NCBI GenBank assembly: GCA_035531395.1
Contig: DATKTA010000032.1
Location: 146,033 to 210,032 of the forward strand
From: Bacteroidales bacterium
Lineage (GTDB): Bacteria; Bacteroidota; Bacteroidia; Bacteroidales; VadinHA17
Reading direction: 5' to 3'
DNA: 64,000 nucleotides
The notes beneath the pieces are model-generated. The model made no database searches. It was not told the DNA's origin and saw nothing but the letters and a program-made list of their open reading frames with translations. This document shows, one piece after another, positions 6,051 through 15,331 of this stretch. How positions within the stretch are numbered: the stretch's first letter is position 1; every line of letters begins with the position of its first letter. The position numbers were made by a program, and so were the translations under genes.

Positions 6051-7361
6051 ATGACTAATATTAATGATAAAATAAATGGCATTATGGAAAAGAAGAATGA
6101 AGCAGTTATGAATGCTGCAGGGATAGTTGACCTAGGATTTCCCATGTGGCCTGTTTTTGCTGAAGAGACATTCAAAGATATTCTGGAACCACTGAAAAGC
6201 GGGAAAGTAAATTACTGGACCGGCAAGAAAGGGATGGAATTTGAAGAAAAATGGGCTAAATGGAATGGTGCAAAATATGCAATCTCGTGCACCAATGGTA
6301 CAGCTGCCCTTCATATAGCCGTTTCAAGTCTTGGGATTGGTCCTGGTGATGAGGTGATAGTTCCTTCATATTCATTTATCGCCTCCTCATTTGCTATAGT
6401 TCAGGCCGGAGCAATTCCTGTTTTTTGTGATACAACGGAAGACCATACCATTGATCCTGATCAGATTGAACCACTTATTACAAAGCGTACAAAAGCCATA
6501 ATTGTTGTTCATCTTTATGGGGTCGTTGCCGATATGGGGCCAATACTTAAAATTGCCAGGAAGCATAAACTGAAAGTTATTGAGGATTGTGCCCAGTGCT
6601 TTGGAGGGGAATATAACGGGATTAAAGCAGGAGCAATAGGTGATGCAGGTTGCTTCAGTTTCTGCCAGAGCAAGCATTTTACTACTGGAGGCGAAGGAGG
6701 AATGGTTGTTACAAACAATGAAGATCTTGCCTGGGAGTGCCGTTCTTTTCGCGATCATGGATATGATGTAAAGGAGAGGCTAAACATGTTGGCTCTTGAG
6801 GAGAAGCTACCCTATATCCACAACAGGGTTGGTTTCAACTTCAGGATGACCGAGATACAATCTGTTATTGGACTGAACGAACTTAAGAGGCTCGACACCT
6901 GGAATCTTAAGAGACGTTTTAAATATGCTTCAATGTATGACAGGGCTTTTAAGAACCTGAAGGGAGTGAAGAAACTACCCGTAAATACTGCTGAAAGGAA
7001 AAATGCATACTGGTGGTACCCGATAGTGCTTGATACAGAGATGATTGACATTGACGCAGCCGGGATGATCAAAGAACTCCATGATCAAAATATTCCCTGC
7101 TATGGTATCCAGTGGCCTGAAGCCTATCTTGAGAAAGCTTACAGGGGACACAATGGCTTTGGTGCAAACAAATTCCCTTTCAGATCTGAAGAATATACAG
7201 ATAAGAAAAGTGTTAATTACGATAAGGTATTATGTAAAACTGCCAGTTCCTTAAGGAAAAGGACTATCTCCCTTTTCCTTCATCCTTCGTGGGAGGAAAA
7301 GCATATTCAGAGGTGTATTGATGTATTTTCCGTTACCTGTGAAAAGCATCTTAAGAAGTAG
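6051..7361 (+). CDS. DegT/DnrJ/EryC1/StrS-family PLP-dependent sugar aminotransferase
   Basis: Family-typical blocks: CTNGTAALHIAVSSLGIGPGDEVIVPSYSF, AIPVFCDT, TKAIIVVHLYG, VIEDCAQCFGGEY, and FSFCQSKHFTTGGEGGMVVTN (PLP lysine). No signal peptide. The start could also be an internal Met at 6084 or 6108. Confidence 0.9.
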   Translation: MTNINDKINGIMEKKNEAVMNAAGIVDLGFPMWPVFAEETFKDILEPLKSGKVNYWTGKKGMEFEEKWAKWNGAKYAISCTNGTAALHIAVSSLGIGPGDEVIVPSYSFIASSFAIVQAGAIPVFCDTTEDHTIDPDQIEPLITKRTKAIIVVHLYGVVADMGPILKIARKHKLKVIEDCAQCFGGEYNGIKAGAIGDAGCFSFCQSKHFTTGGEGGMVVTNNEDLAWECRSFRDHGYDVKERLNMLALEEKLPYIHNRVGFNFRMTEIQSVIGLNELKRLDTWNLKRRFKYASMYDRAFKNLKGVKKLPVNTAERKNAYWWYPIVLDTEMIDIDAAGMIKELHDQNIPCYGIQWPEAYLEKAYRGHNGFGANKFPFRSEEYTDKKSVNYDKVLCKTASSLRKRTISLFLHPSWEEKHIQRCIDVFSVTCEKHLKK

Positions 7362-7568
7362 TCATATAAGAAGAAAATGAAGCAAAGCCGCGATGAACTG
7401 AAATGGGATTTTGCTTTTCTGTTTCTGGAAACCTGAAACAAGTCATACTGATAAAATGATTAATCAGAGAAGGAGTATATCGTCTACAATGGTAAAAAAT
7501 ACTGATTCTTTTTCCTCTATAAAAGTTAATAAACTTTACAGTCTGCATTAAAAAATGTAAACTTGTAT

Positions 7569-8951
7569 ATGATTAAGATTGACCCTAAACTTAGGGCTGC
7601 AGACCTTTCAGCTAAACTGAAAAGATTCTGGCAGTTGTCCGGAGAAAAAATATATCTGATTGACAGACAATACGATGAGTCTAAGGGATCACCGGTATTT
7701 ACCGTTAAAGGTAAATATTCAACCCGTGGCTGGACCGAATGGACTCAGGGTTTCCAATATGGTGCTGCCATTCTTCAGTTTGATGCAACAGGGGAAAAGG
7801 AATACCTTGAATCTGGCAGGAACAAAACCCTTCATAAAATGGCTCCTCATGTAAGCCATACCGGAGTCCATGATCATGGGTTCAACAATGTCAGTACTTA
7901 TGGAAATCTTCTGCGGCTGATGGTCGAAGGAAAGATCCCTTTAAATGAATGGGAAAAGAATTTCTATGAGCTTGCACTGAAAATTTCAGGAGCTGTACAG
8001 GCTTCACGCTGGACAACAATAAAGGATGGCGGATTCATTCACTCATTCAATGGGGCACATTCCTTATTTGTTGATACAATAAGGTCTTGCAGGGCACTAA
8101 CTTTAAGTCATATGCTTGGGCATGTTCTCCAGGGTGAAGGTGATGTCAAAATAAATCTTTTTGAACGGGCTATGCTCCATATGAAGGCAACTGCGAAATA
8201 TTCTGTATTCTATGGGGAGGACCGCGACAGATATGATATATGGGGCAGAACTGCCCATGAGAGTATCTTTAATGTCGCGGATGGTAATTTCAGATGTCCC
8301 GGTACGCAACAGGGATATTCCGGTTTTACCACCTGGACCCGTGGACTTGCCTGGGCAATGTGCGGTTTTGCAGAACAGCTTGAATGGTTAGAAACAATTG
8401 ACAGCAAGGAGCTTGATGCTCTTGGTGGAAAAGATGATCTTAAGGCAGTATTCCTGCGTGCGGCAAAAGCTACCTGCGATTTCTATATAGCCAATACACC
8501 TGTTGACGGAGTGCCGTACTGGGATACCGGCGCACCTGGTCTTCATCGTATGGGTGATTACCTTGATAAACCATCTGATCCTTTTAATCAGTATGAGCCT
8601 GTTGATAGCTCTGCAGCTGCTATTGCGTCACAGGGTCTTCTGAGGCTTGGCAGATACCTTGAGAACAATGTTGACCAGGCGGATGGTATGCCTTACTGGC
8701 AGGCAGGACTTAAAGTTATTGGCACTTTGTTATCAGAACCTTACATAAGCACTGATCCGGATCACCAGGGACTACTCCTTCATACTGTCTATCATCACCC
8801 GAACGGGTGGGATCATATACCTGAAGGGAGCAAAATACCTTATGGTGAATCATGTATGTGGGGTGATTATCATATCCGGGAAGCTTGTCTTTATCTTGAC
8901 AGGATCATAAACAACGGGAAATATTATACTTATTTCAATTGTGCAAAATGA
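7569..8951 (+). CDS. GH88-like (unsaturated glucuronyl hydrolase superfamily, six-hairpin), cytoplasmic
   Basis: GVHDHGFNN (the HDxGF catalytic-Asp block) and WTRGLAWAMCGF (the WxRGQAW-type block). No signal peptide. The track ORF starts at TTG 7563; I prefer ATG 7569. Confidence 0.7.
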   Translation: MIKIDPKLRAADLSAKLKRFWQLSGEKIYLIDRQYDESKGSPVFTVKGKYSTRGWTEWTQGFQYGAAILQFDATGEKEYLESGRNKTLHKMAPHVSHTGVHDHGFNNVSTYGNLLRLMVEGKIPLNEWEKNFYELALKISGAVQASRWTTIKDGGFIHSFNGAHSLFVDTIRSCRALTLSHMLGHVLQGEGDVKINLFERAMLHMKATAKYSVFYGEDRDRYDIWGRTAHESIFNVADGNFRCPGTQQGYSGFTTWTRGLAWAMCGFAEQLEWLETIDSKELDALGGKDDLKAVFLRAAKATCDFYIANTPVDGVPYWDTGAPGLHRMGDYLDKPSDPFNQYEPVDSSAAAIASQGLLRLGRYLENNVDQADGMPYWQAGLKVIGTLLSEPYISTDPDHQGLLLHTVYHHPNGWDHIPEGSKIPYGESCMWGDYHIREACLYLDRIINNGKYYTYFNCAK

Positions 8952-9781
8952 GCTCTGATCGTGTTAAAGACCTGTCGCGTCTTTGTATTCATACTATCAC
9001 AACAAAACCGTGGAACATTGAAGAGGCTGCAAAAAACTTTGCTGCTTCAGGTGTGAAAGGAATAACAGTATGGCGGGATGCACTTATTGGCAGGGATATC
9101 ACGCAAACAGGAGAGATGCTCAGAAGCCATGGACTGTCAATAGTCTCACTTTGCAGGGGCGGATTTTTCCCTTCATCAGATAAGGAAAGGAGGAGTGTTG
9201 CACTTGATGATAACCGGCGGGCCATTGAGGAGGCATATAAGCTCGGTACTGAAAAGATAGTACTGGTATGCGGTGCTGACCCTTCTCAATCGCTGGAAGA
9301 TTCAAGGAAACAGATATTTGATGGAATACTGGCTGTTTTACCGGAGGCACAATCTGCAGGCATAAAGCTGGCAATAGAGCCTTTACATCCGATGTATGCC
9401 GATACCCGTTCGGCAATCAATACAATCGCACAGGCTAATGACCTGGCTGAAGCGATTAACAGTAAGTGGGTTGGAGTGGCAGTTGATGTTTACCATCTAT
9501 GGTGGGATCCGGATCTTGAAAAGGAGATTGCAAGATGTGGAAGGAATGAGCACCTGCTGGCATTTCATATCTGCGACTGGAAGTCGCCAACTGTTGATAT
9601 GCTGAATGACAGAGGATTGATGGGAGAGGGATGCATTCCGATCAGGAAAATCAGGTCGTGGGTTGAGGCTGCAGGATTCAATGGATTTATTGAAGTGGAA
9701 ATCTTCTCAAACATCTTCTGGCATCAGGATCAGGGTGAATTTTTAAAGAAAATAGTTGAAGCTTATCAAAAACATGCTTAA
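8948..9781 (+). CDS. Sugar phosphate isomerase/epimerase-type TIM barrel (xylose isomerase-like, AP_endonuc_2), cytoplasmic
   Basis: LAIEPLHP and VDVYHLWWDPD metal-site-like blocks. ATG 8948 overlaps the upstream stop as ATGA (8948-8951), which suggests translational coupling. Confidence 0.8.
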   Translation: MSSDRVKDLSRLCIHTITTKPWNIEEAAKNFAASGVKGITVWRDALIGRDITQTGEMLRSHGLSIVSLCRGGFFPSSDKERRSVALDDNRRAIEEAYKLGTEKIVLVCGADPSQSLEDSRKQIFDGILAVLPEAQSAGIKLAIEPLHPMYADTRSAINTIAQANDLAEAINSKWVGVAVDVYHLWWDPDLEKEIARCGRNEHLLAFHICDWKSPTVDMLNDRGLMGEGCIPIRKIRSWVEAAGFNGFIEVEIFSNIFWHQDQGEFLKKIVEAYQKHA

Positions 9782-9790
9782 ATATTTAAA

Positions 9791-9905
9791 CACAGAGTTC
9801 ACAGAGGGAACACACAAAGGGCACAAAGAAAACAACTCTGAGTCCTCCGTGAAGCTCCTAATAATCTGTCATTTGGCAGAGCCTCAGGACTCTGTGATCT
9901 CTGTG
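9791..9905. repeat. REP/MITE-like palindromic element (CACAGAG type) between two operon genes
   Basis: The terminal inverted repeat cacagagttcacagag (9791-9806) matches ctctgtgatctctgtg (9890-9905) with one central mismatch. An inner stem pairs gagtcct (9840-9846) with aggactc (9886-9892). Confidence 0.7.
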
Positions 9906-9925
9906 GTAACAAAACATACAACACG

Positions 9926-11080
9926 ATGACAAAATACACTGTAGGAATAATAATGAACGGTGTTACAGGCAGGATGGGAACCAACCAGCACCTGCTCCGT
10001 TCAATAGTTGAAATAATAAAGGAGGGAGGAGTTAAGCTCAACCCGGGTGAAACAATAATGCCCGATCCGGTTCTTGTTGGCCGTGATGAGAATAAGCTTA
10101 AAAAGCTTTGCTCCATAACAGGTATAACTAAGATGACCACCGATCTTGATTCTGTACTTAATGATCCCTCATATTCAGTCTATTTTGATGCGCAGACAAC
10201 CGGCAGGAGAGCAGATGCTGTCAGAAAAGCAGTCAGGGCAGGTAAGCACATCTATTGTGAGAAGCCAGTTGCTGTGAGTACTGAGGTTGCCATGGAGCTG
10301 TATACTCTATGTAAAAAAGCAGGAGCTAAGAACGGTGTTGTGCAGGATAAGTTATGGCTTCCTGGGATCATCAAATTAAAAAGGCTGATCCAGCAGGGAT
10401 TCTTTGGCAGGATCCTTTCTGTAAGAGGTGAATTCGGCTACTGGGTTTTTGAGGGTGATACAATAGCTGCCCAGAGGCCTTCATGGAACTATCGTAAGGA
10501 AGATGACGGAGGTATCATAGTTGACATGTTGTGCCACTGGCGCTACGTGCTCGATAATGTATTTGGAAAAGTTAAGGCTGTTTCATGTCTGGGTGCCACA
10601 CATATCGAAAAAAGGGTTGATGAGAATGGTAAGGGATATAAATGTACTGCCGACGATTCTGCTTATGCTACGTTTGAACTGGAGAATGGTATTATAGCAC
10701 ATTTCAATTCATCATGGGCAGTCAGGGTACGTCGAGATGACCTCCTTACACTGCAGGTAGATGGCACAAAAGGATCAGCAGTTGCAGGTCTTCGTGAATG
10801 CTATATTCAGCATTATGGCAATACTCCAAAACCTGTATGGAATCCGGATATCCCGCAACCAATCAATTTCTTTGAAGGGTGGTCGAAAGTACCCGAGCAG
10901 GAGGTTTATGAAAATGCCTTCAAGGTCCAGTGGGAGCTATTCCTTAAGCATGTGGTTAAAGATGAGCCCTTTCCGTGGGATCTGCGCGAGGGTGCAAAAG
11001 GTGTTCAGCTTGCTGAAAAGGGTCTGGATAGCTGGGCAGGAAGATGCTGGGTTGATATACCTGAACTTAAAAACTTTTAA
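9926..11080 (+). CDS. Gfo/Idh/MocA-family NAD(P)-dependent oxidoreductase, cytoplasmic
   Basis: N-terminal Rossmann block VGIIMNGVTGRMG and the EKP motif (YCEKPVA). Length of 384 aa fits the family. No signal peptide. Confidence 0.9.
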   Translation: MTKYTVGIIMNGVTGRMGTNQHLLRSIVEIIKEGGVKLNPGETIMPDPVLVGRDENKLKKLCSITGITKMTTDLDSVLNDPSYSVYFDAQTTGRRADAVRKAVRAGKHIYCEKPVAVSTEVAMELYTLCKKAGAKNGVVQDKLWLPGIIKLKRLIQQGFFGRILSVRGEFGYWVFEGDTIAAQRPSWNYRKEDDGGIIVDMLCHWRYVLDNVFGKVKAVSCLGATHIEKRVDENGKGYKCTADDSAYATFELENGIIAHFNSSWAVRVRRDDLLTLQVDGTKGSAVAGLRECYIQHYGNTPKPVWNPDIPQPINFFEGWSKVPEQEVYENAFKVQWELFLKHVVKDEPFPWDLREGAKGVQLAEKGLDSWAGRCWVDIPELKNF

Positions 11081-11090
11081 AACAGATATT

Positions 11091-12101
11091 ATGAAAACTA
11101 CACGCAGGAATTTCATTTCAAAATCAGTTCTGACAGCAACTGGTATAACAGCCGGCTTCAAATCGGGCCTCTTAAACGGAGCTGCTCTCAATTATTATGA
11201 TACATCTGTTGTTCTTCCGGCAGCAGCTGATTCTGAGGCTTTTAAAATCAGTGTATTCTCAAAACATTTTCATTGGCTTGATTACAATAAGATGGCAGAA
11301 GCACTTGTTGAGATTGGCTTTGATGGTGCCGATCTGACAGTCAGACCCGGAGGACATGTTCTGCCTGAAAATGTTGTGCAGGATCTTCCTAAAGCTGCTG
11401 AAGCCCTGGCAAAAAAAAGCAAAAAGATATATATGATCACAACTGCTATACGCGATGCAGATGATCCTGTAACTGATAAGATACTTAAAACTTGCTCCGA
11501 GCTTGGAATTAGGCACTACCGTATGGACTGGGGTCATTACGATAATACAAAGTCTGTTGAAGAGAATATGGCAATCATGCAGACAAAGCTTGAAAAACTT
11601 GCCAGAATGAATGAAAAATATTCTGTCTCCGGTGAATACCAGAATCATTCAGGAGTGGCAAGAGAAGGGATCTATTTCGGAGGTGCAATATGGGATACCG
11701 CTATGGTTCTCAAAGCTGTGAATTCAAAATGGGTTGGTGCTCAATATGATGTTTTTCATGCTTCTATAGAAGGTGCGAACACCTGGCCGGTAGGACTTAA
11801 GTTAATCAGTCCATATATACGGTCAATTGATATAAAGGATTTTGACTGGGTGAAGGAAGAAGGAAAGACAAAGTCAGAGTCAGTTCCTCTTGGAACAGGC
11901 CGTGTCGATTTCAAAAGGTATTTCGCTATGCTCAGGGAAATGAAGATCAGTGTTCCTGTATCCATCCACTATGAATATCCGCTTGGAGGAGCGGAGAACG
12001 GAGCAACTCAGCTGACAATAAAAAAAGAAGATTTATTCTCAGCGATGAAAAGAGATCTTGCTATACTGAAGGGTTATCTGAAAGAAGCGGGACTGGTATA
12101 G
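11091..12101 (+). CDS. Tat-exported xylose-isomerase-like TIM-barrel protein
   Basis: Twin-arginine leader MKTTRRNFISKSVLTATGITAGF. AP_endonuc_2-like body (GFDGADLTVRPGGHV, YQNHSG, YDVFHA). The track ORF from 10761 is an out-of-frame-overlap artefact; ATG 11091 lies 10 nt after the upstream stop. Confidence 0.85.
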   Translation: MKTTRRNFISKSVLTATGITAGFKSGLLNGAALNYYDTSVVLPAAADSEAFKISVFSKHFHWLDYNKMAEALVEIGFDGADLTVRPGGHVLPENVVQDLPKAAEALAKKSKKIYMITTAIRDADDPVTDKILKTCSELGIRHYRMDWGHYDNTKSVEENMAIMQTKLEKLARMNEKYSVSGEYQNHSGVAREGIYFGGAIWDTAMVLKAVNSKWVGAQYDVFHASIEGANTWPVGLKLISPYIRSIDIKDFDWVKEEGKTKSESVPLGTGRVDFKRYFAMLREMKISVPVSIHYEYPLGGAENGATQLTIKKEDLFSAMKRDLAILKGYLKEAGLV

Positions 12102-12112
12102 GGTGTATATAG

Positions 12113-12143
12113 GGGAGATCCCTCGCTTTGCTCGGGATGACAC
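12113..12143. repeat. Short inverted copy of the GTCATyCCGAG...CGAGGrATCTyCC REP family
   Basis: The reverse complement gtgtcatcccgagcaaagcgagggatctc shares both ends with the 71-nt units at 12229-12405. Confidence 0.6.
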
Positions 12144-12158
12144 TTCATTATATAAAAA

Positions 12159-12215
12159 ATATGTGAAAGGAGGAGGCAATTTGCCACTGGCAAATTGCCT
12201 CCTCCTTTCACATAT
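12159..12215. terminator. Perfect 28-bp-arm palindrome; likely bidirectional terminator between convergent genes
   Basis: atatgtgaaaggaggaggcaatttgcca (12159-12186), then c, then tggcaaattgcctcctcctttcacatat (12188-12215). It is flanked by an A-run upstream and sits between a + gene ending at 12101 and a - gene ending at 12450. Confidence 0.7.
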
Positions 12216-12228
12216 CACCTTCATTTGA

Positions 12229-12405
12229 CTGTCATTCCGAGTTCCGCTTCAGCGGGACGAGGAATCTTCCCGGTGTTTCACTCGTTTATCTTTTATAACC
12301 TGTTATCCCGCATTTCCATTTAGCGGGACGAGGAATCTTCCCGGTGTTTCACTCGTTTATCTTGAATAACCTGTCATCCCTAATTTCCGTTCAGCGGGAT
12401 GGATG
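12229..12405. repeat. 71-nt tandem repeat, about 2.5 copies (REP family, variable head and constant tail)
   Basis: The identical core agcgggacgaggaatcttcccggtgtttcactcgtttatctt occurs at 12251-12292 and 12322-12363. A third partial copy starts at 12393. The period is exactly 71 nt. Confidence 0.9.
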
Positions 12406-12449
12406 GATTTGAAATGAGCAAGAGGTCAAAAGAAATATTTTTCACATAA

Positions 12450-13931
12450 TCAGTTATTTTGCTGTATCATTATGTCGCCAATATAATACCAGCCATCATC
12501 ATTAGCACCTGAAATAGCCAGTTTCACTCTTGGTTCAAAAGAAACCGGTGATACTATTGCTATCTCAATTTTGTAGTTTCCTGCCTGCATATCATGAGGG
12601 ACGTACAGGATTTCATCATGTACAATATCACCTGGAAACCAGTCAGGCAGATATGCACTGGTGACAAGTATCTTTGTCTCCTTTTCATTCTTTAAACGGA
12701 CAGCAAATTTATAATCCTTGTAGATTGGAGCAACTCCCTTGTTTTCCCACCAGCTGGTAATTGGCAGCTGTCCCTGAAGTTTAACAGAAGAAGGATATGT
12801 AAATCTGCGCAAAACAAACCGGTAACCCATTTTGTTAAGCCATTCATTTACCAGTGGAGAATATATTTCAGGGACTGCAGAACTTTTGGCATTAAAAGAC
12901 GATATATGCCATTTAAGGGCCTGCTCAAAAATGTATTTCACGGTATCTTTATTATATTTCTCTTTCTCCAGCCATCTCAGAAAGGTACCACAGATTTCCA
13001 TTGTGACTGGTGCTTTTTTCCATGCCTCATTCATTCCACTTTTCACTATATCGCGTGGATAAATATCAGTCATATGATTCCAGTCAGGCCAGAATCCCAT
13101 ATCACCCAGGCAGTCGAGGCGCCAGCCAAGGTGGCGCATCTGAGGGCCGGTTCCGTTATTCCGCCCATCAGGCCAGAATGCTGCAATATTTGTATTTTTT
13201 ACCAGTACTCCTGCATCAGGAGCGTCGCCGTTGAGTGGCTGAAATGTTAAGAATGTCTTGTTAAAATTGTCCAGGTAGACATTTATTAAAGCAACCCGGG
13301 TCTGTTCGGTCAGCAGATGAGTCCCTTCACCTTCTCCCCAGTATCCGACAAGTGAAACATCAACCGATTCAAGATCGGGATGCCCGTCGTACCTTTCTCC
13401 CAATGCTCTAATCATACCACCGTAATACTTTAAGTAATTTGGATCTTCGTGATCAACTCTCCATTTTGCAATTTTAGATGGCACTTCTCTTCCGACAATT
13501 TTCCTGTACCATCCGGGTACATCTACTTCAGAGTTATAAGGAGGAATCCGAAGCATCAGAGTTTGTCCACGTTCAGCTGCAGTCTTCAAGGCTTTGTCGA
13601 TCATTGCCCAGTTATATTGTCCTTGTTCCGGTTCAACGAAATTCCAGTAAACTCTGAAGTAGGCAATGCTTGTCTGTGGATGGTCTTTGTTGATGAGGCT
13701 TCCATTAAAATCCTGGTATACAATAGGATATCCTTCTGTCCAACCCATTCCATCATTCAGCTTATCTCCGTTAAACCGCTGAAAGGTCATGAATCCGATT
13801 CCCGGATTATTAAGAACATCATGAATTTCTACAGGTTTCACAATCTTTAAGATAGCTGCCTCCTGGCCAGAACTTAGAGTCAGTCCGGGGAAAAAACAAA
13901 TTGAATAAAATAAAAATACCTTCTTTAACAT
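12450..13931 (-). CDS. Secreted glycoside-hydrolase-like TIM-barrel protein (DUF4874/DUF4832-like, clan GH-A-like)
   Basis: Signal peptide MLKKVFLFYSICFFPGLTLSSG. NPGIGF and YFRVYWNFVEPEQGQYNW blocks are typical of this GH-like group. Start taken at the internal Met (the ORF extends to 13967). Confidence 0.5.
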   Translation of the reverse strand: MLKKVFLFYSICFFPGLTLSSGQEAAILKIVKPVEIHDVLNNPGIGFMTFQRFNGDKLNDGMGWTEGYPIVYQDFNGSLINKDHPQTSIAYFRVYWNFVEPEQGQYNWAMIDKALKTAAERGQTLMLRIPPYNSEVDVPGWYRKIVGREVPSKIAKWRVDHEDPNYLKYYGGMIRALGERYDGHPDLESVDVSLVGYWGEGEGTHLLTEQTRVALINVYLDNFNKTFLTFQPLNGDAPDAGVLVKNTNIAAFWPDGRNNGTGPQMRHLGWRLDCLGDMGFWPDWNHMTDIYPRDIVKSGMNEAWKKAPVTMEICGTFLRWLEKEKYNKDTVKYIFEQALKWHISSFNAKSSAVPEIYSPLVNEWLNKMGYRFVLRRFTYPSSVKLQGQLPITSWWENKGVAPIYKDYKFAVRLKNEKETKILVTSAYLPDWFPGDIVHDEILYVPHDMQAGNYKIEIAIVSPVSFEPRVKLAISGANDDGWYYIGDIMIQQNN

Positions 13932-14032
13932 ATTGATAATATTAAGTTTGGTTGATCTGTTTATCATTTTAGCATCTGTAATCTCACTCTCTGAAAGCTT
14001 TAAAATATGTTATAAAACATAATTTGTAGCTA

Positions 14033-15331
14033 TTACTTCAGCCACTTGTCGAACCAGTCGAATGCCTCTTTCTGCATTTTTGCATCGAACTTGTGTTTGC
14101 CGGGATAGAAGGAACATTTGTATTTATCTGATGCTCCGGCCTTCTGATATACTTCCTGCAGTACTTTATCTGCAGCATTCATCTCAGGAACGGTATACAG
14201 GTCATCGTCTGTATCATTCAGAACAAGTGTTGGCAGTGGAACCCTTAAGCCAAGAATCTCAGGGAAATCGAGTTCATTTGGAAGTATCGGAACATAGGTC
14301 ATCCAGGTATGGGTAAATGATTTATTCAGTACAAAGTCCTTCCAGGTTGTCATAAATCCTACACAAACAGCACACTTGATCCTGCTGTCGAGTCCGCCTG
14401 TAAAGACCGTCCTCATGCCACCACCTGAAAGTCCGCCGCACCCTATCTTATCTTTTATTACATCCTTTCTTGAGCTGAGGATATCAAGCGCAATCCTGTC
14501 TTCTGCCATAAATACTCCTGGCCATGTAGTTCCTGCACTGAAAAGAGATTTTGCCATAATATGCTCATGGTTGCCAGCCCACTGGTTGTATGCTGCTATG
14601 TTTTTTGGATCCTCCGGATTTTCATCTGTATGTCCTTCACGAAATCTTTCCGGAATATCCTCCATCCATACCCTTCGGCTTGCAAATGGGAATGCGTCGG
14701 ATACAAGCACGACATATCCTCTTCTGGCTATCTCATTTGCCCAGGCTTTTCCACTATAATAATTCATCTGATGATCTTTCATTAACGGATGCTGGCCTTC
14801 GCCAGTGCGTGTTATCTTCCTGGTGCCGAAGTACTTGTTACCTCCATGATCATGAAAAGCCAGGATTCCCGGCAGAGGAGCTTTTGCATCTGCAGGTTTT
14901 AAAAGGATAGCTTCTGTAGGACGTCCATAAGGCAGTTTCCATGTAAGTTCTTCAATATGCAAACCTTCCCATATATATTGTTTTTTTACAACTACCTCCG
15001 GGGCTGAACCAATATCAGGAATAGCAAGTCTGTCTCTTATTTTTGCTTCCGCTGCCTGGTGCCATTTCTTAATATCATTCCACTCTTTCCTCCTGAAAGA
15101 GAGTGAAGGCATCTTATTATTTGCAAGTGTTGTTGCCCAGGGTCCGTATTGCCCTATCAGGCTGAGGCTTTCTTGTTGTGTCATGTTATTCAGGTTGTTA
15201 AAAGATATTTTTCCAGGTAAGTCAGTTATGCTTTCATTTGTTGATGACAGACCATCTGTGAATCTGCTGCCGGCTATTGTTAATCCTGCCATACCGGCAT
15301 ATTTAATAAATTTTCTTCTGCTGTTTTTCAT
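14033..15331 (-). CDS. Tat-exported alpha/beta-hydrolase (esterase, acetylxylan-esterase/dienelactone-hydrolase-like)
   Basis: Twin-arginine leader MKNSRRKFIKYAGMAGLTIAGS. Nucleophile elbow GGLSGGG (GxSxG). FHDHGG block. Confidence 0.75.
   Translation of the reverse strand: MKNSRRKFIKYAGMAGLTIAGSRFTDGLSSTNESITDLPGKISFNNLNNMTQQESLSLIGQYGPWATTLANNKMPSLSFRRKEWNDIKKWHQAAEAKIRDRLAIPDIGSAPEVVVKKQYIWEGLHIEELTWKLPYGRPTEAILLKPADAKAPLPGILAFHDHGGNKYFGTRKITRTGEGQHPLMKDHQMNYYSGKAWANEIARRGYVVLVSDAFPFASRRVWMEDIPERFREGHTDENPEDPKNIAAYNQWAGNHEHIMAKSLFSAGTTWPGVFMAEDRIALDILSSRKDVIKDKIGCGGLSGGGMRTVFTGGLDSRIKCAVCVGFMTTWKDFVLNKSFTHTWMTYVPILPNELDFPEILGLRVPLPTLVLNDTDDDLYTVPEMNAADKVLQEVYQKAGASDKYKCSFYPGKHKFDAKMQKEAFDWFDKWLK

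Follow-up and report, generated by a model that had tools for sequence, protein, structure and literature searches.

A conserved Bacteroidota gene cassette built around a GH88-like enzyme, with a candidate role in unsaturated uronide breakdown

Five co-directional open reading frames (ORFs) span positions 6051-12101 of a 64-kb window from a Bacteroidales genome (contig DATKTA010000032.1; the window is the whole stretch of DNA analyzed here). They encode a DegT-type aminotransferase, a GH88-like enzyme (GH88L), a cytoplasmic xylose-isomerase-like TIM barrel (TIM1), a Gfo/Idh/MocA oxidoreductase (Gfo) and a second such barrel carrying a twin-arginine translocation (Tat) leader (Tat-TIM). This combination raises the question of whether the five proteins serve one pathway, and on what kind of substrate. 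The original prediction, made from the sequence of this stretch, took them as one catabolic locus for a non-hydrolytic route through keto intermediates. We find instead that the five genes fall into two units, a lone DegT gene and a four-gene unit B (7569-12101), and that unit B is the local four-gene version of an orphan cassette found throughout the Bacteroidota. It is this cassette, and not the link to DegT, that makes the locus of interest, and we tentatively assign it to the breakdown of unsaturated uronides.

A fixed cassette in Bacteroidota

The ORF scan and Pfam searches bore out the five co-directional genes and agreed with the xylose-isomerase-fold, Gfo/Idh/MocA and DegT assignments that had been made for them. 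On the forward strand, unit B begins with the gene for GH88L, a cytoplasmic (alpha/alpha)6 enzyme of 460 aa (7569-8951), whose ATG at 7569 agrees with the MIxID start of its homologues. The genes for TIM1 (8948-9781, 277 aa; Pfam AP_endonuc_2, 1.1e-40), the cytoplasmic Gfo (9926-11080, 384 aa; GFO_IDH_MocA domains) and Tat-TIM (11091-12101, 336 aa; AP_endonuc_2, 9.4e-24) follow on the same strand. The close coupling described earlier is present on the sequence: GH88L and TIM1 share an ATGA overlap at 8948-8951, seen again in relatives, through which TIM1 is predicted to be translationally coupled to GH88L, and the spacer between Gfo and Tat-TIM is 10 nt.

To place these genes in context we scanned one genome per species and recovered 80 loci with a GH88-like protein 64-80% identical to that of the window, from Cytophagales, Chitinophagales, Sphingobacteriales and Bacteroidales-type lineages; two more contigs from an identity lookup brought the total to 82 cassette loci. 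The window proteins were mapped onto these loci and all neighboring ORFs were clustered, and a locus was treated as informative if its downstream DNA extended for 4.5 kb or more, which held for 67. The order GH88L-TIM1-Gfo is kept in 51 of the 67 informative loci, often with the same 4-nt overlap, and TIM1 adjoins GH88L in 61 of all 82. Next in line, in 59 of the 67, is a 256-aa short-chain dehydrogenase/reductase (SDR). GH88L, TIM1 and Gfo thus form a fixed cassette in Bacteroidota. Genomes and metagenome contigs of Bacteroidota that carry it number in the thousands, with Dyadobacter spp., Spirosoma luteum, Emticicia and Mariniphaga anaerophila (DSM 26910) among the culturable carriers, and its proteins are unusually conserved, at 65-90% identity across orders, while the flanks of 72 cassette loci hold unrelated genes for the most part. 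Where a transporter accompanies the cassette (36 of 67 informative loci), it is of the AAHS, aromatic-acid or sialate type of the major facilitator superfamily (MFS), a lactate/oxalate MFS protein or a PanF-like protein of the solute:sodium symporter family, all of them carboxylate carriers. An AraC or LacI regulator frequently lies upstream. A literature search on the related structures and loci (7VPF, 3OQB, 3QC0, 3JU2, SMc04130-04133, 4DNH and the combination of GH88, Gfo and isomerase) returned no functional paper.

The same survey separates DegT from the cassette. A DegT homologue was found in none of the 82 cassette loci, and in 87 loci collected around DegT itself we found no GH88L, no TIM1, no Gfo of the 3oqb type (see below) and no Tat-TIM. 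DegT is a separate unit outside the conserved cassette and only a neighbor in the window, so that its inclusion in one catabolic locus is not supported. The 207-nt spacer between the two genes (7362-7568, forward strand), which we folded and aligned with relatives, gives a similar picture. A conserved upstream element (AATAAACTTTACAGTC ... GTAAACTTGTATATG) makes up its final ~60 nt; within it, AATAAACTTTAyAGTC lies ~40 nt before the start of GH88L and is followed by a conserved leader, CTTGTATATG. The element occupies 7516-7568 in the window and the matching positions in two relatives, 7940-8000 in L001 and 6940-7000 in L192, and it is kept before GH88L whether the gene upstream is DegT (window), a divergent BNR gene (L001 and L190) or a GH123 gene (L192). 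This constancy under any upstream gene argues for a promoter region belonging to the cassette, and the element may serve as its promoter or as a site for a regulator. The five genes are therefore not the single conserved operon first proposed, as DegT is absent from the cassette loci and the conserved element precedes GH88L. Directly 3' of DegT there is a weak stem-loop with a U-rich tail, and a terminator scan of 7362-7568 returned nothing on the forward strand.

In 11 of the 67 informative loci a 481-aa flavoenzyme resembling old yellow enzyme (OYE) stands in for TIM1 and Gfo. These loci, of Spirosomataceae type (L011, L012, L014, L016, L018, L020, L026, L034, L040, L051 and L078), continue with the same SDR, a Tat-exported Gfo protein with sub-threshold similarity to the BT_2158 family, and an MFS carrier.

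A divergent GH88-like enzyme

We next asked what kind of enzyme heads the cassette. An AlphaFold 2 model of GH88L (pLDDT 82.8) was compared with known structures using Foldseek, and the top 11 matches were GH88 unsaturated glucuronyl hydrolases (UGLs), with E-values of ~1e-9, TM-scores (target) of 0.66-0.76 and 19-22% identity; GH105 enzymes, mannose isomerase and N-acylglucosamine 2-epimerase folds ranked below them. GH88L thus has the (alpha/alpha)6 fold of the UGLs of Bacillus sp. GL1 (1vd5, 2fv0) and Streptococcus agalactiae (2zzr), and it lacks a signal peptide, in keeping with the cytoplasmic location of Bacillus UGL and YteR-type enzymes.

The active site is retained to a large extent. 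In a profile alignment to 1vd5 and 2zzr, UGL residues W42, F46, H193 and Q211 correspond to W58, F62, H230 and Q248 of GH88L, W219, R221 and W225 to W256, R258 and W262, and Y338-H339 to Y408-H409. The first catalytic aspartate, Bacillus D88, maps to D102 (in HDHGF) by way of D115 of the S. agalactiae enzyme. All of these aligned residues are invariant in 31 family members. In UGL, a functional part in hydrating the vinyl ether has been assigned to D149, H193, D88 and F46, with W42 named as the stacking residue (PMC4528949). For the second catalytic aspartate, D149, an hhalign comparison of the GH88L family with a canonical GH88/105 protein failed to place an equivalent, and a phmmer search of the PDB with residues 95-230 gave no match; D169, which is invariant and stands at a helix start, is only a candidate for this role.

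GH88L differs from characterized UGLs in its low identity of ~19-22% and in ~80 extra residues, which include a poorly modeled insert at 216-254. More than 8,000 homologues were found at 90% clustering, and they fall essentially into one full-length cluster at 50%, which indicates a compact family under strong constraint. Precomputed tables assign the Pfam family Glyco_hydro_88 (PF07470) to part of this family. The earlier description of a GH88-like hydrolase thus holds for the fold; the Pfam GH88 match of the protein itself stays below its cut-off. By alignment and model, GH88L would represent a divergent but compact subfamily of GH88, and it is a candidate hydrolase or hydratase for unsaturated uronyl groups. 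In our reading it may still hydrate a 4,5-unsaturated uronate-type ring, with the aglycone side, including the insert, remodeled.

The dehydrogenase and barrel downstream

Searches against the PDB placed both of the next two proteins in families of structures that lack a named function. Gfo matched 3oqb from Bradyrhizobium at 1.3e-153, and characterized enzymes came next at 1e-14 to 1e-7, among them scyllo-inositol and L-glucose dehydrogenases, levoglucosan dehydrogenase (1.4e-14), AFR and DgpA (6.5e-8). TIM1 matched 3qc0 and 3ju2, both SMc04130 of Sinorhizobium meliloti, and 7vpf at ~1e-77, with the inositol enzyme IolI (1i60) following at 7.2e-9. The two proteins are 62% identical to SMc04133 (Gfo) and 49% identical to SMc04130 (TIM1). 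Judged by these matches, Gfo is an orthologue of the orphan 3oqb/SMc04133 family and TIM1 an orthologue of SMc04130. All named NCBIfam models scored far under their cut-offs for Gfo (BT_2159, 24.9 against 650; LgdA, 67.7 against 650; IolG, 68.3 against 355, the best named match at 5.1e-19), as did IolO for TIM1 (40.7 against 300).

Outside the Bacteroidota, orthologues of the pair are 44-62% identical, with Gfo at 55-62% to proteins of rhizobia, Haloferax, plasmid pAO1 and Chimaeribacter, and the genes around them recur in recognizable forms. In rhizobia, a TetR gene precedes Gfo, a dihydrodipicolinate synthase (DHDPS)-like protein (4dnh), an enolase-like protein and TIM1. On pAO1, a glucose-methanol-choline (GMC) oxidase and an aldehyde dehydrogenase (AldH) precede Gfo, which is followed by a DHDPS-like protein and a glycerate kinase. 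The Haloferax orthologue of Gfo has a pectate lyase on one side and a GH28 enzyme on the other, and in Chimaeribacter the unit is reduced to TetR, Gfo, TIM1 and an MFS protein. As in the window, the TIM1 and Gfo orthologues SMc04130 and SMc04133 share one regulated catabolic cluster in S. meliloti; there, the enolase-like and DHDPS-like proteins take the places that the GH88-like enzyme and the SDR have in Bacteroidota. By the matches obtained, the enolase-like and DHDPS-like partners appear to be orphans themselves, with no characterized relatives. By analogy, the rhizobial and pAO1 partners (enolase-like, DHDPS-like, AldH, glycerate kinase) look typical of acid-sugar routes. These acid-sugar-like contexts are free of glycosidases, which suggests that Gfo and TIM1 probably act on a monomer and not on an intact glycoside; that monomer would probably be a carboxylated intermediate.

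The rhizobial cluster SMc04130-04133 lies at 7992-12575 of our S. meliloti locus (L096), with a second example in L095; the pAO1 locus is L098. Among the S. meliloti proteins, structures exist for SMc04130 (3ju2/3qc0) and SMc04132 (4dnh), while SMc04133 is represented by its Bradyrhizobium homologue 3oqb only. The rhizobial enolase-like protein has neither a PDB nor an NCBIfam match.

The position that the SDR holds in most relatives is taken in the window by Tat-TIM. Its leader, MKTTRRNFISKSVLTATGITAGF, starts MKTTRRNFISK and contains the Tat motif TRRNFI ahead of a hydrophobic stretch; the paired arginines are kept in eight of nine orthologues, the remaining one having RK. In the model (pLDDT 82.9) the leader is unstructured or helical. 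The sole PDB sequence match of the protein is 3tva (5.6e-6), and Foldseek returned generic barrels at 13-18% identity (UlaE, tagatose and psicose epimerases, YcjR and AtHYD), so that placement against DgpB/C, LgdB and BT2157 cannot discriminate. Tat-TIM adjoins Gfo only in the lineage of the window (L001/L190, L007, L027, L191 and L192) and occurs anywhere in 8 of the 67 informative loci, as against 59 with an SDR at that position. The window has no SDR in its cassette, and the best SDR match in the genome, 44% identical, lies at another place. These distributions suggest that Tat-TIM is a lineage-specific accessory in the slot of the SDR. The original prediction had split the chemistry across the inner membrane; the part that survives is a predicted export of one barrel through a conserved Tat leader, and it applies to a protein confined to this lineage. 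Compared with the closest relative, L192, Tat-TIM (11091-12101 in the window, 10485-11498 in L192) is 62% identical; for DegT, GH88L, TIM1 and Gfo the value is 87-91%. Tat-TIM would thus be either the fastest-evolving member of the set or a replacement.

A tentative route for unsaturated uronides and its rivals

Several loci tie the cassette to uronates. A gene for a Sec-exported rhamnogalacturonan lyase of polysaccharide lyase family 11 (PL11) interrupts the cassette between TIM1 and Gfo in two genomes of Marinilabiliales type (L033, 2530-4206; L076, 12210-13661). In L002 the cassette is flanked by UxuA and a UxuB-like gene of the mannitol dehydrogenase family; in L017 and L044 an orthologous UxuB-like gene (cluster c44) is found upstream, and in L044 the SDR is followed by a 391-aa ORF of UxuA size. 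From the observed gene order, conservation, fold, aligned residues and kinds of neighbor, we infer the substrate and every chemical step of a cytoplasmic route in which GH88-type hydration of an unsaturated uronide is followed by an isomerase and a dehydrogenase acting on the resulting keto-deoxy-uronate. We propose this route as plausible, at somewhat less than even confidence. A small carboxylated unsaturated uronide, a di- or oligosaccharide that ends in a 4,5-unsaturated hexuronate and is produced by a secreted polysaccharide lyase, for instance the PL11 enzyme, would first be imported. In the cytoplasm GH88L would hydrate its vinyl ether, and TIM1, as a metal-dependent enzyme of the isomerase or epimerase type, together with the NAD(P)-dependent Gfo could then turn the keto-deoxy-uronate into a 2-keto-3-deoxy-aldonate; in most relatives the SDR would also act at this stage. 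Tat-TIM would be a periplasmic add-on of this lineage. TIM1 and Gfo would thereby be a non-orthologous counterpart of KduI and KduD. As in the known combinations of UGL with KduI/KduD or DhuI/DhuD, a gene of the isomerase class and one of the dehydrogenase class follow the hydratase, although here they encode a TIM barrel and a Gfo protein and not a cupin (KduI) or an RpiB-type isomerase with an SDR. Since TIM1 belongs to AP_endonuc_2 and not to the KduI cupins (PF04962), the comparison, negative as a family test for KduI/KduD, is one of functional analogy only. The family tests for Iol and KduI/KduD enzymes were both negative, and the locus fits no known inositol or canonical uronate pathway.

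A number of observations weigh against this route. The Glyco_hydro_88 match of GH88L reaches 19.2 bits, below the 26.6-bit cut-off, and residues 105-230, where the second catalytic aspartate would be sought, could be aligned to no UGL with phmmer, hmmsearch or hhalign. The genome encodes canonical KduI and KduD elsewhere, which would make the proposed steps redundant. Two dehydrogenases, Gfo and SDR, in most relatives exceed what an isomerase-plus-reductase scheme needs, and the window has no SDR. The exchange of TIM1 and Gfo for the OYE-like enzyme is not predicted by a simple KduI/KduD analogy. Lyase or uronate genes stand beside only a handful of loci, and the window's own neighbors are mixed glycan enzymes, not clearly pectic. 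We also considered that the cassette might replace KduI and KduD in a genome without them, and dropped this idea, both being present.

The keto-intermediate proposal explains the same genes differently: a glycoside, once imported, would be oxidized by Gfo to a keto-glycoside, on which a TIM barrel would carry out beta-elimination; GH88L would hydrate the resulting enol ether or glycal, DegT would transaminate a keto intermediate, and Tat-TIM would place part of the chemistry in the periplasm. Its appeal is that Gfo enzymes and xylose-isomerase-like barrels are the core of the characterized 3-keto routes (bioRxiv 10.1101/2024.03.25.586180). Known systems of this kind are BT2156-2160 (AL1-5), LgdA/LgdB, DgpA/DgpBC and AtHYD of Agrobacterium tumefaciens, and the cassette of the window, like those systems, has one barrel with a Tat leader. 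Periplasmic redox partners recur near the cassette in the form of a Tat-exported Gfo protein of sub-threshold BT_2158-family similarity, a fusion of pyrroloquinoline quinone (PQQ), GSDH and cytochrome c domains, and Tat-TIM itself; DegT is again found upstream in L192, and members of the DegT family are generally paired with some Gfo enzyme. However, no family cut-off of the 3-keto routes is reached by Gfo, whose scores for BT_2159 and LgdA and E-value for DgpA are given above, and this dehydrogenase lacks a signal peptide; none of the five genes encodes a DUF1080-type partner for it. A GH88-type hydratase stands in the cassette instead. GH88L retains the full set of UGL substrate-binding residues and hence needs no prior oxidation of its substrate, the Gfo/TIM1 pair occurs in other phyla without any glycosidase, DegT lies outside the cassette, and Tat-TIM shows no specific likeness to characterized eliminases or hydratases. 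Given the vinyl-ether hydratase residues of GH88L, the low BT2159, LgdA and IolG scores and the glycosidase-free orthologues, the keto route is not favored, and we consider it improbable. A division of labor in which GH88L cleaves an unsaturated uronide, the uronate goes to KduI and KduD, and TIM1 and Gfo (with the SDR elsewhere) process the released partner sugar, L-rhamnose or an uncommon sugar, seems to us improbable as well. The presence of KduI and KduD in the genome would fit it, PL11 products end in unsaturated GalA-Rha, a GH106 rhamnosidase is encoded 3.3 kb downstream in the window, and the minimal Chimaeribacter unit resembles a monosaccharide module. Yet the transporters near the cassette are of the carboxylate type and not sugar porters, the rhizobial and pAO1 partners indicate acid sugars, and no rhamnose-pathway model scored above its cut-off.

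In an oxidative variant, Gfo would act on a uronate or on the keto-deoxy-uronate at its aldehyde or lactol group and yield a product of the aldarate type (5-keto-4-deoxyglucarate, for example), with TIM1 as a lactone or keto isomerase. It is modeled on the Udh/Gli/Gci/KdgD route of A. tumefaciens, whose enzyme classes are mirrored by the rhizobial set of Gfo, DHDPS-like protein, enolase-like protein and TIM1 (Udh/KdgD/Gci/Gli), and the pAO1 Gfo adjoins an AldH, a DHDPS-like protein and a glycerate kinase. DHDPS-like and AldH genes are absent from the Bacteroidota cassette, however, and the enolase-like and DHDPS-like proteins have no characterized relatives; we give this variant little credence. 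A direct-reduction variant, of the reductive type found in fungi and leading to 2-keto-3-deoxy-L-galactonate, was considered as well. Finally, a pathway of the inositol, inosamine or rhizopine type, with an IolG-like dehydrogenase, an IolI/IolE-like barrel and an inosose aminotransferase, could be drawn from the standing of IolG as the best named match of Gfo, from the weak matches of TIM1 to IolO and IolI, and from the inosose aminotransferases among DegT relatives. The model scores largely refute it (IolG, 68 against 355; IolO, 41 against 300). There are also no other iol genes nearby, a pathway of this type has no use for a GH88-type enzyme that keeps uronate-binding residues, and DegT is unlinked to the cassette. 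We rejected it as very improbable.

If the unsaturated-uronide route is correct, it would add a branch to the degradation of pectin, glycosaminoglycans or gums in soils, sediments and digesters, and provide a function for three orphan crystal structures. The SMc04130/SMc04133 pair (3ju2 and the 3oqb family) extends from Bacteroidota to rhizobia, actinobacteria and haloarchaea. The more far-reaching claim, that the cassette is a third solution for unsaturated uronides and 5-keto-4-deoxyuronate after KduI/KduD and DhuI/DhuD, with a new GH88 subfamily and a first function for SMc04130 and SMc04133, is one we regard as rather doubtful.

The upstream aminotransferase

DegT (6051-7361, forward strand) is a pyridoxal phosphate (PLP)-dependent aminotransferase of the DegT/DnrJ/EryC1 family (Pfam DegT_DnrJ_EryC1, 8.8e-96). 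Because its homologues are 423-425 aa long and their alignment begins at residue 10-12, the true start is probably the ATG at 6084, giving 425 aa. Its closest solved structure is 7l7x (8.2e-73). Compared with the nucleotide-sugar aminotransferase equivalogs PseC, LegC, ArnB, WecE, RfbH and DesI in NCBIfam, DegT reached no cut-off (PseC, 236 against 423.5; LegC, 216 against 420; ArnB, 193 against 631) and matched only the Pfam superfamily.

Across Bacteroidota and Clostridia the family shows 70-90% identity, and it keeps company of its own. In the 87 DegT loci the partners are a ~347-aa Gfo protein (55 loci), a ceramidase-like amidase (28), a PIG-L deacetylase (23) and a 316-aa protein (14), none of which occurs in the 64-kb window. 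The DegT-family cassette may serve to break down N-acylated amino sugars, with removal of the amino group. The window protein is a member of the DegT family of such DegT-plus-Gfo amino-sugar cassettes (NtdA/NtdC-type chemistry) but stands apart from their usual partner genes. A fuller form of the cassette adds a DHDPS-like protein and an aldo-keto reductase (AKR); the 316-aa protein has no Pfam family.

Only 3 of 25 congeners carry a DegT orthologue, two of them in other contexts: an AraC gene ahead of DegT, a TIM barrel, a Tat-exported Gfo protein and a CN hydrolase, and a ceramidase-like gene ahead of DegT, PIG-L, a DHDPS-like protein, an AKR and a permease. DegT lies upstream of the GH88L cassette only in the window and in L192, so the juxtaposition was inherited within a narrow lineage. 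In L192 the order is Tat-exported Gfo, DegT, GH123, GH88L, TIM1, Gfo and Tat-TIM, with GH123 parting DegT from the cassette, and GH88L and DegT are 89% and 90% identical to those of the window. The L192 placement thus reflects shared ancestry and is no independent evidence of a link. For the window, the practical correction is that the aminotransferase is not to be annotated as a member of the pathway. We also considered DegT as a mobile insertion and set this aside, since no flanking repeats were found.

Minor features of the locus

The gap between TIM1 and Gfo is 144 nt in the window, as against only ~10-100 nt in most relatives, and it contains a 115-nt palindromic element (9791-9905, no strand assigned) resembling a repetitive extragenic palindromic (REP) sequence or a miniature inverted-repeat transposable element (MITE). 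It folds at -45.2 kcal/mol, with a z-score of -5.26 against shuffled sequences, and lacks a T-run. Downstream of unit B, a DUF4832/GH42-like gene and a gene for a 432-aa alpha/beta-hydrolase-like protein (12450-15331) are syntenic in the nearest relatives L001, L007 and L190, and DUF4838 genes occupy the downstream region in L001 and L190.

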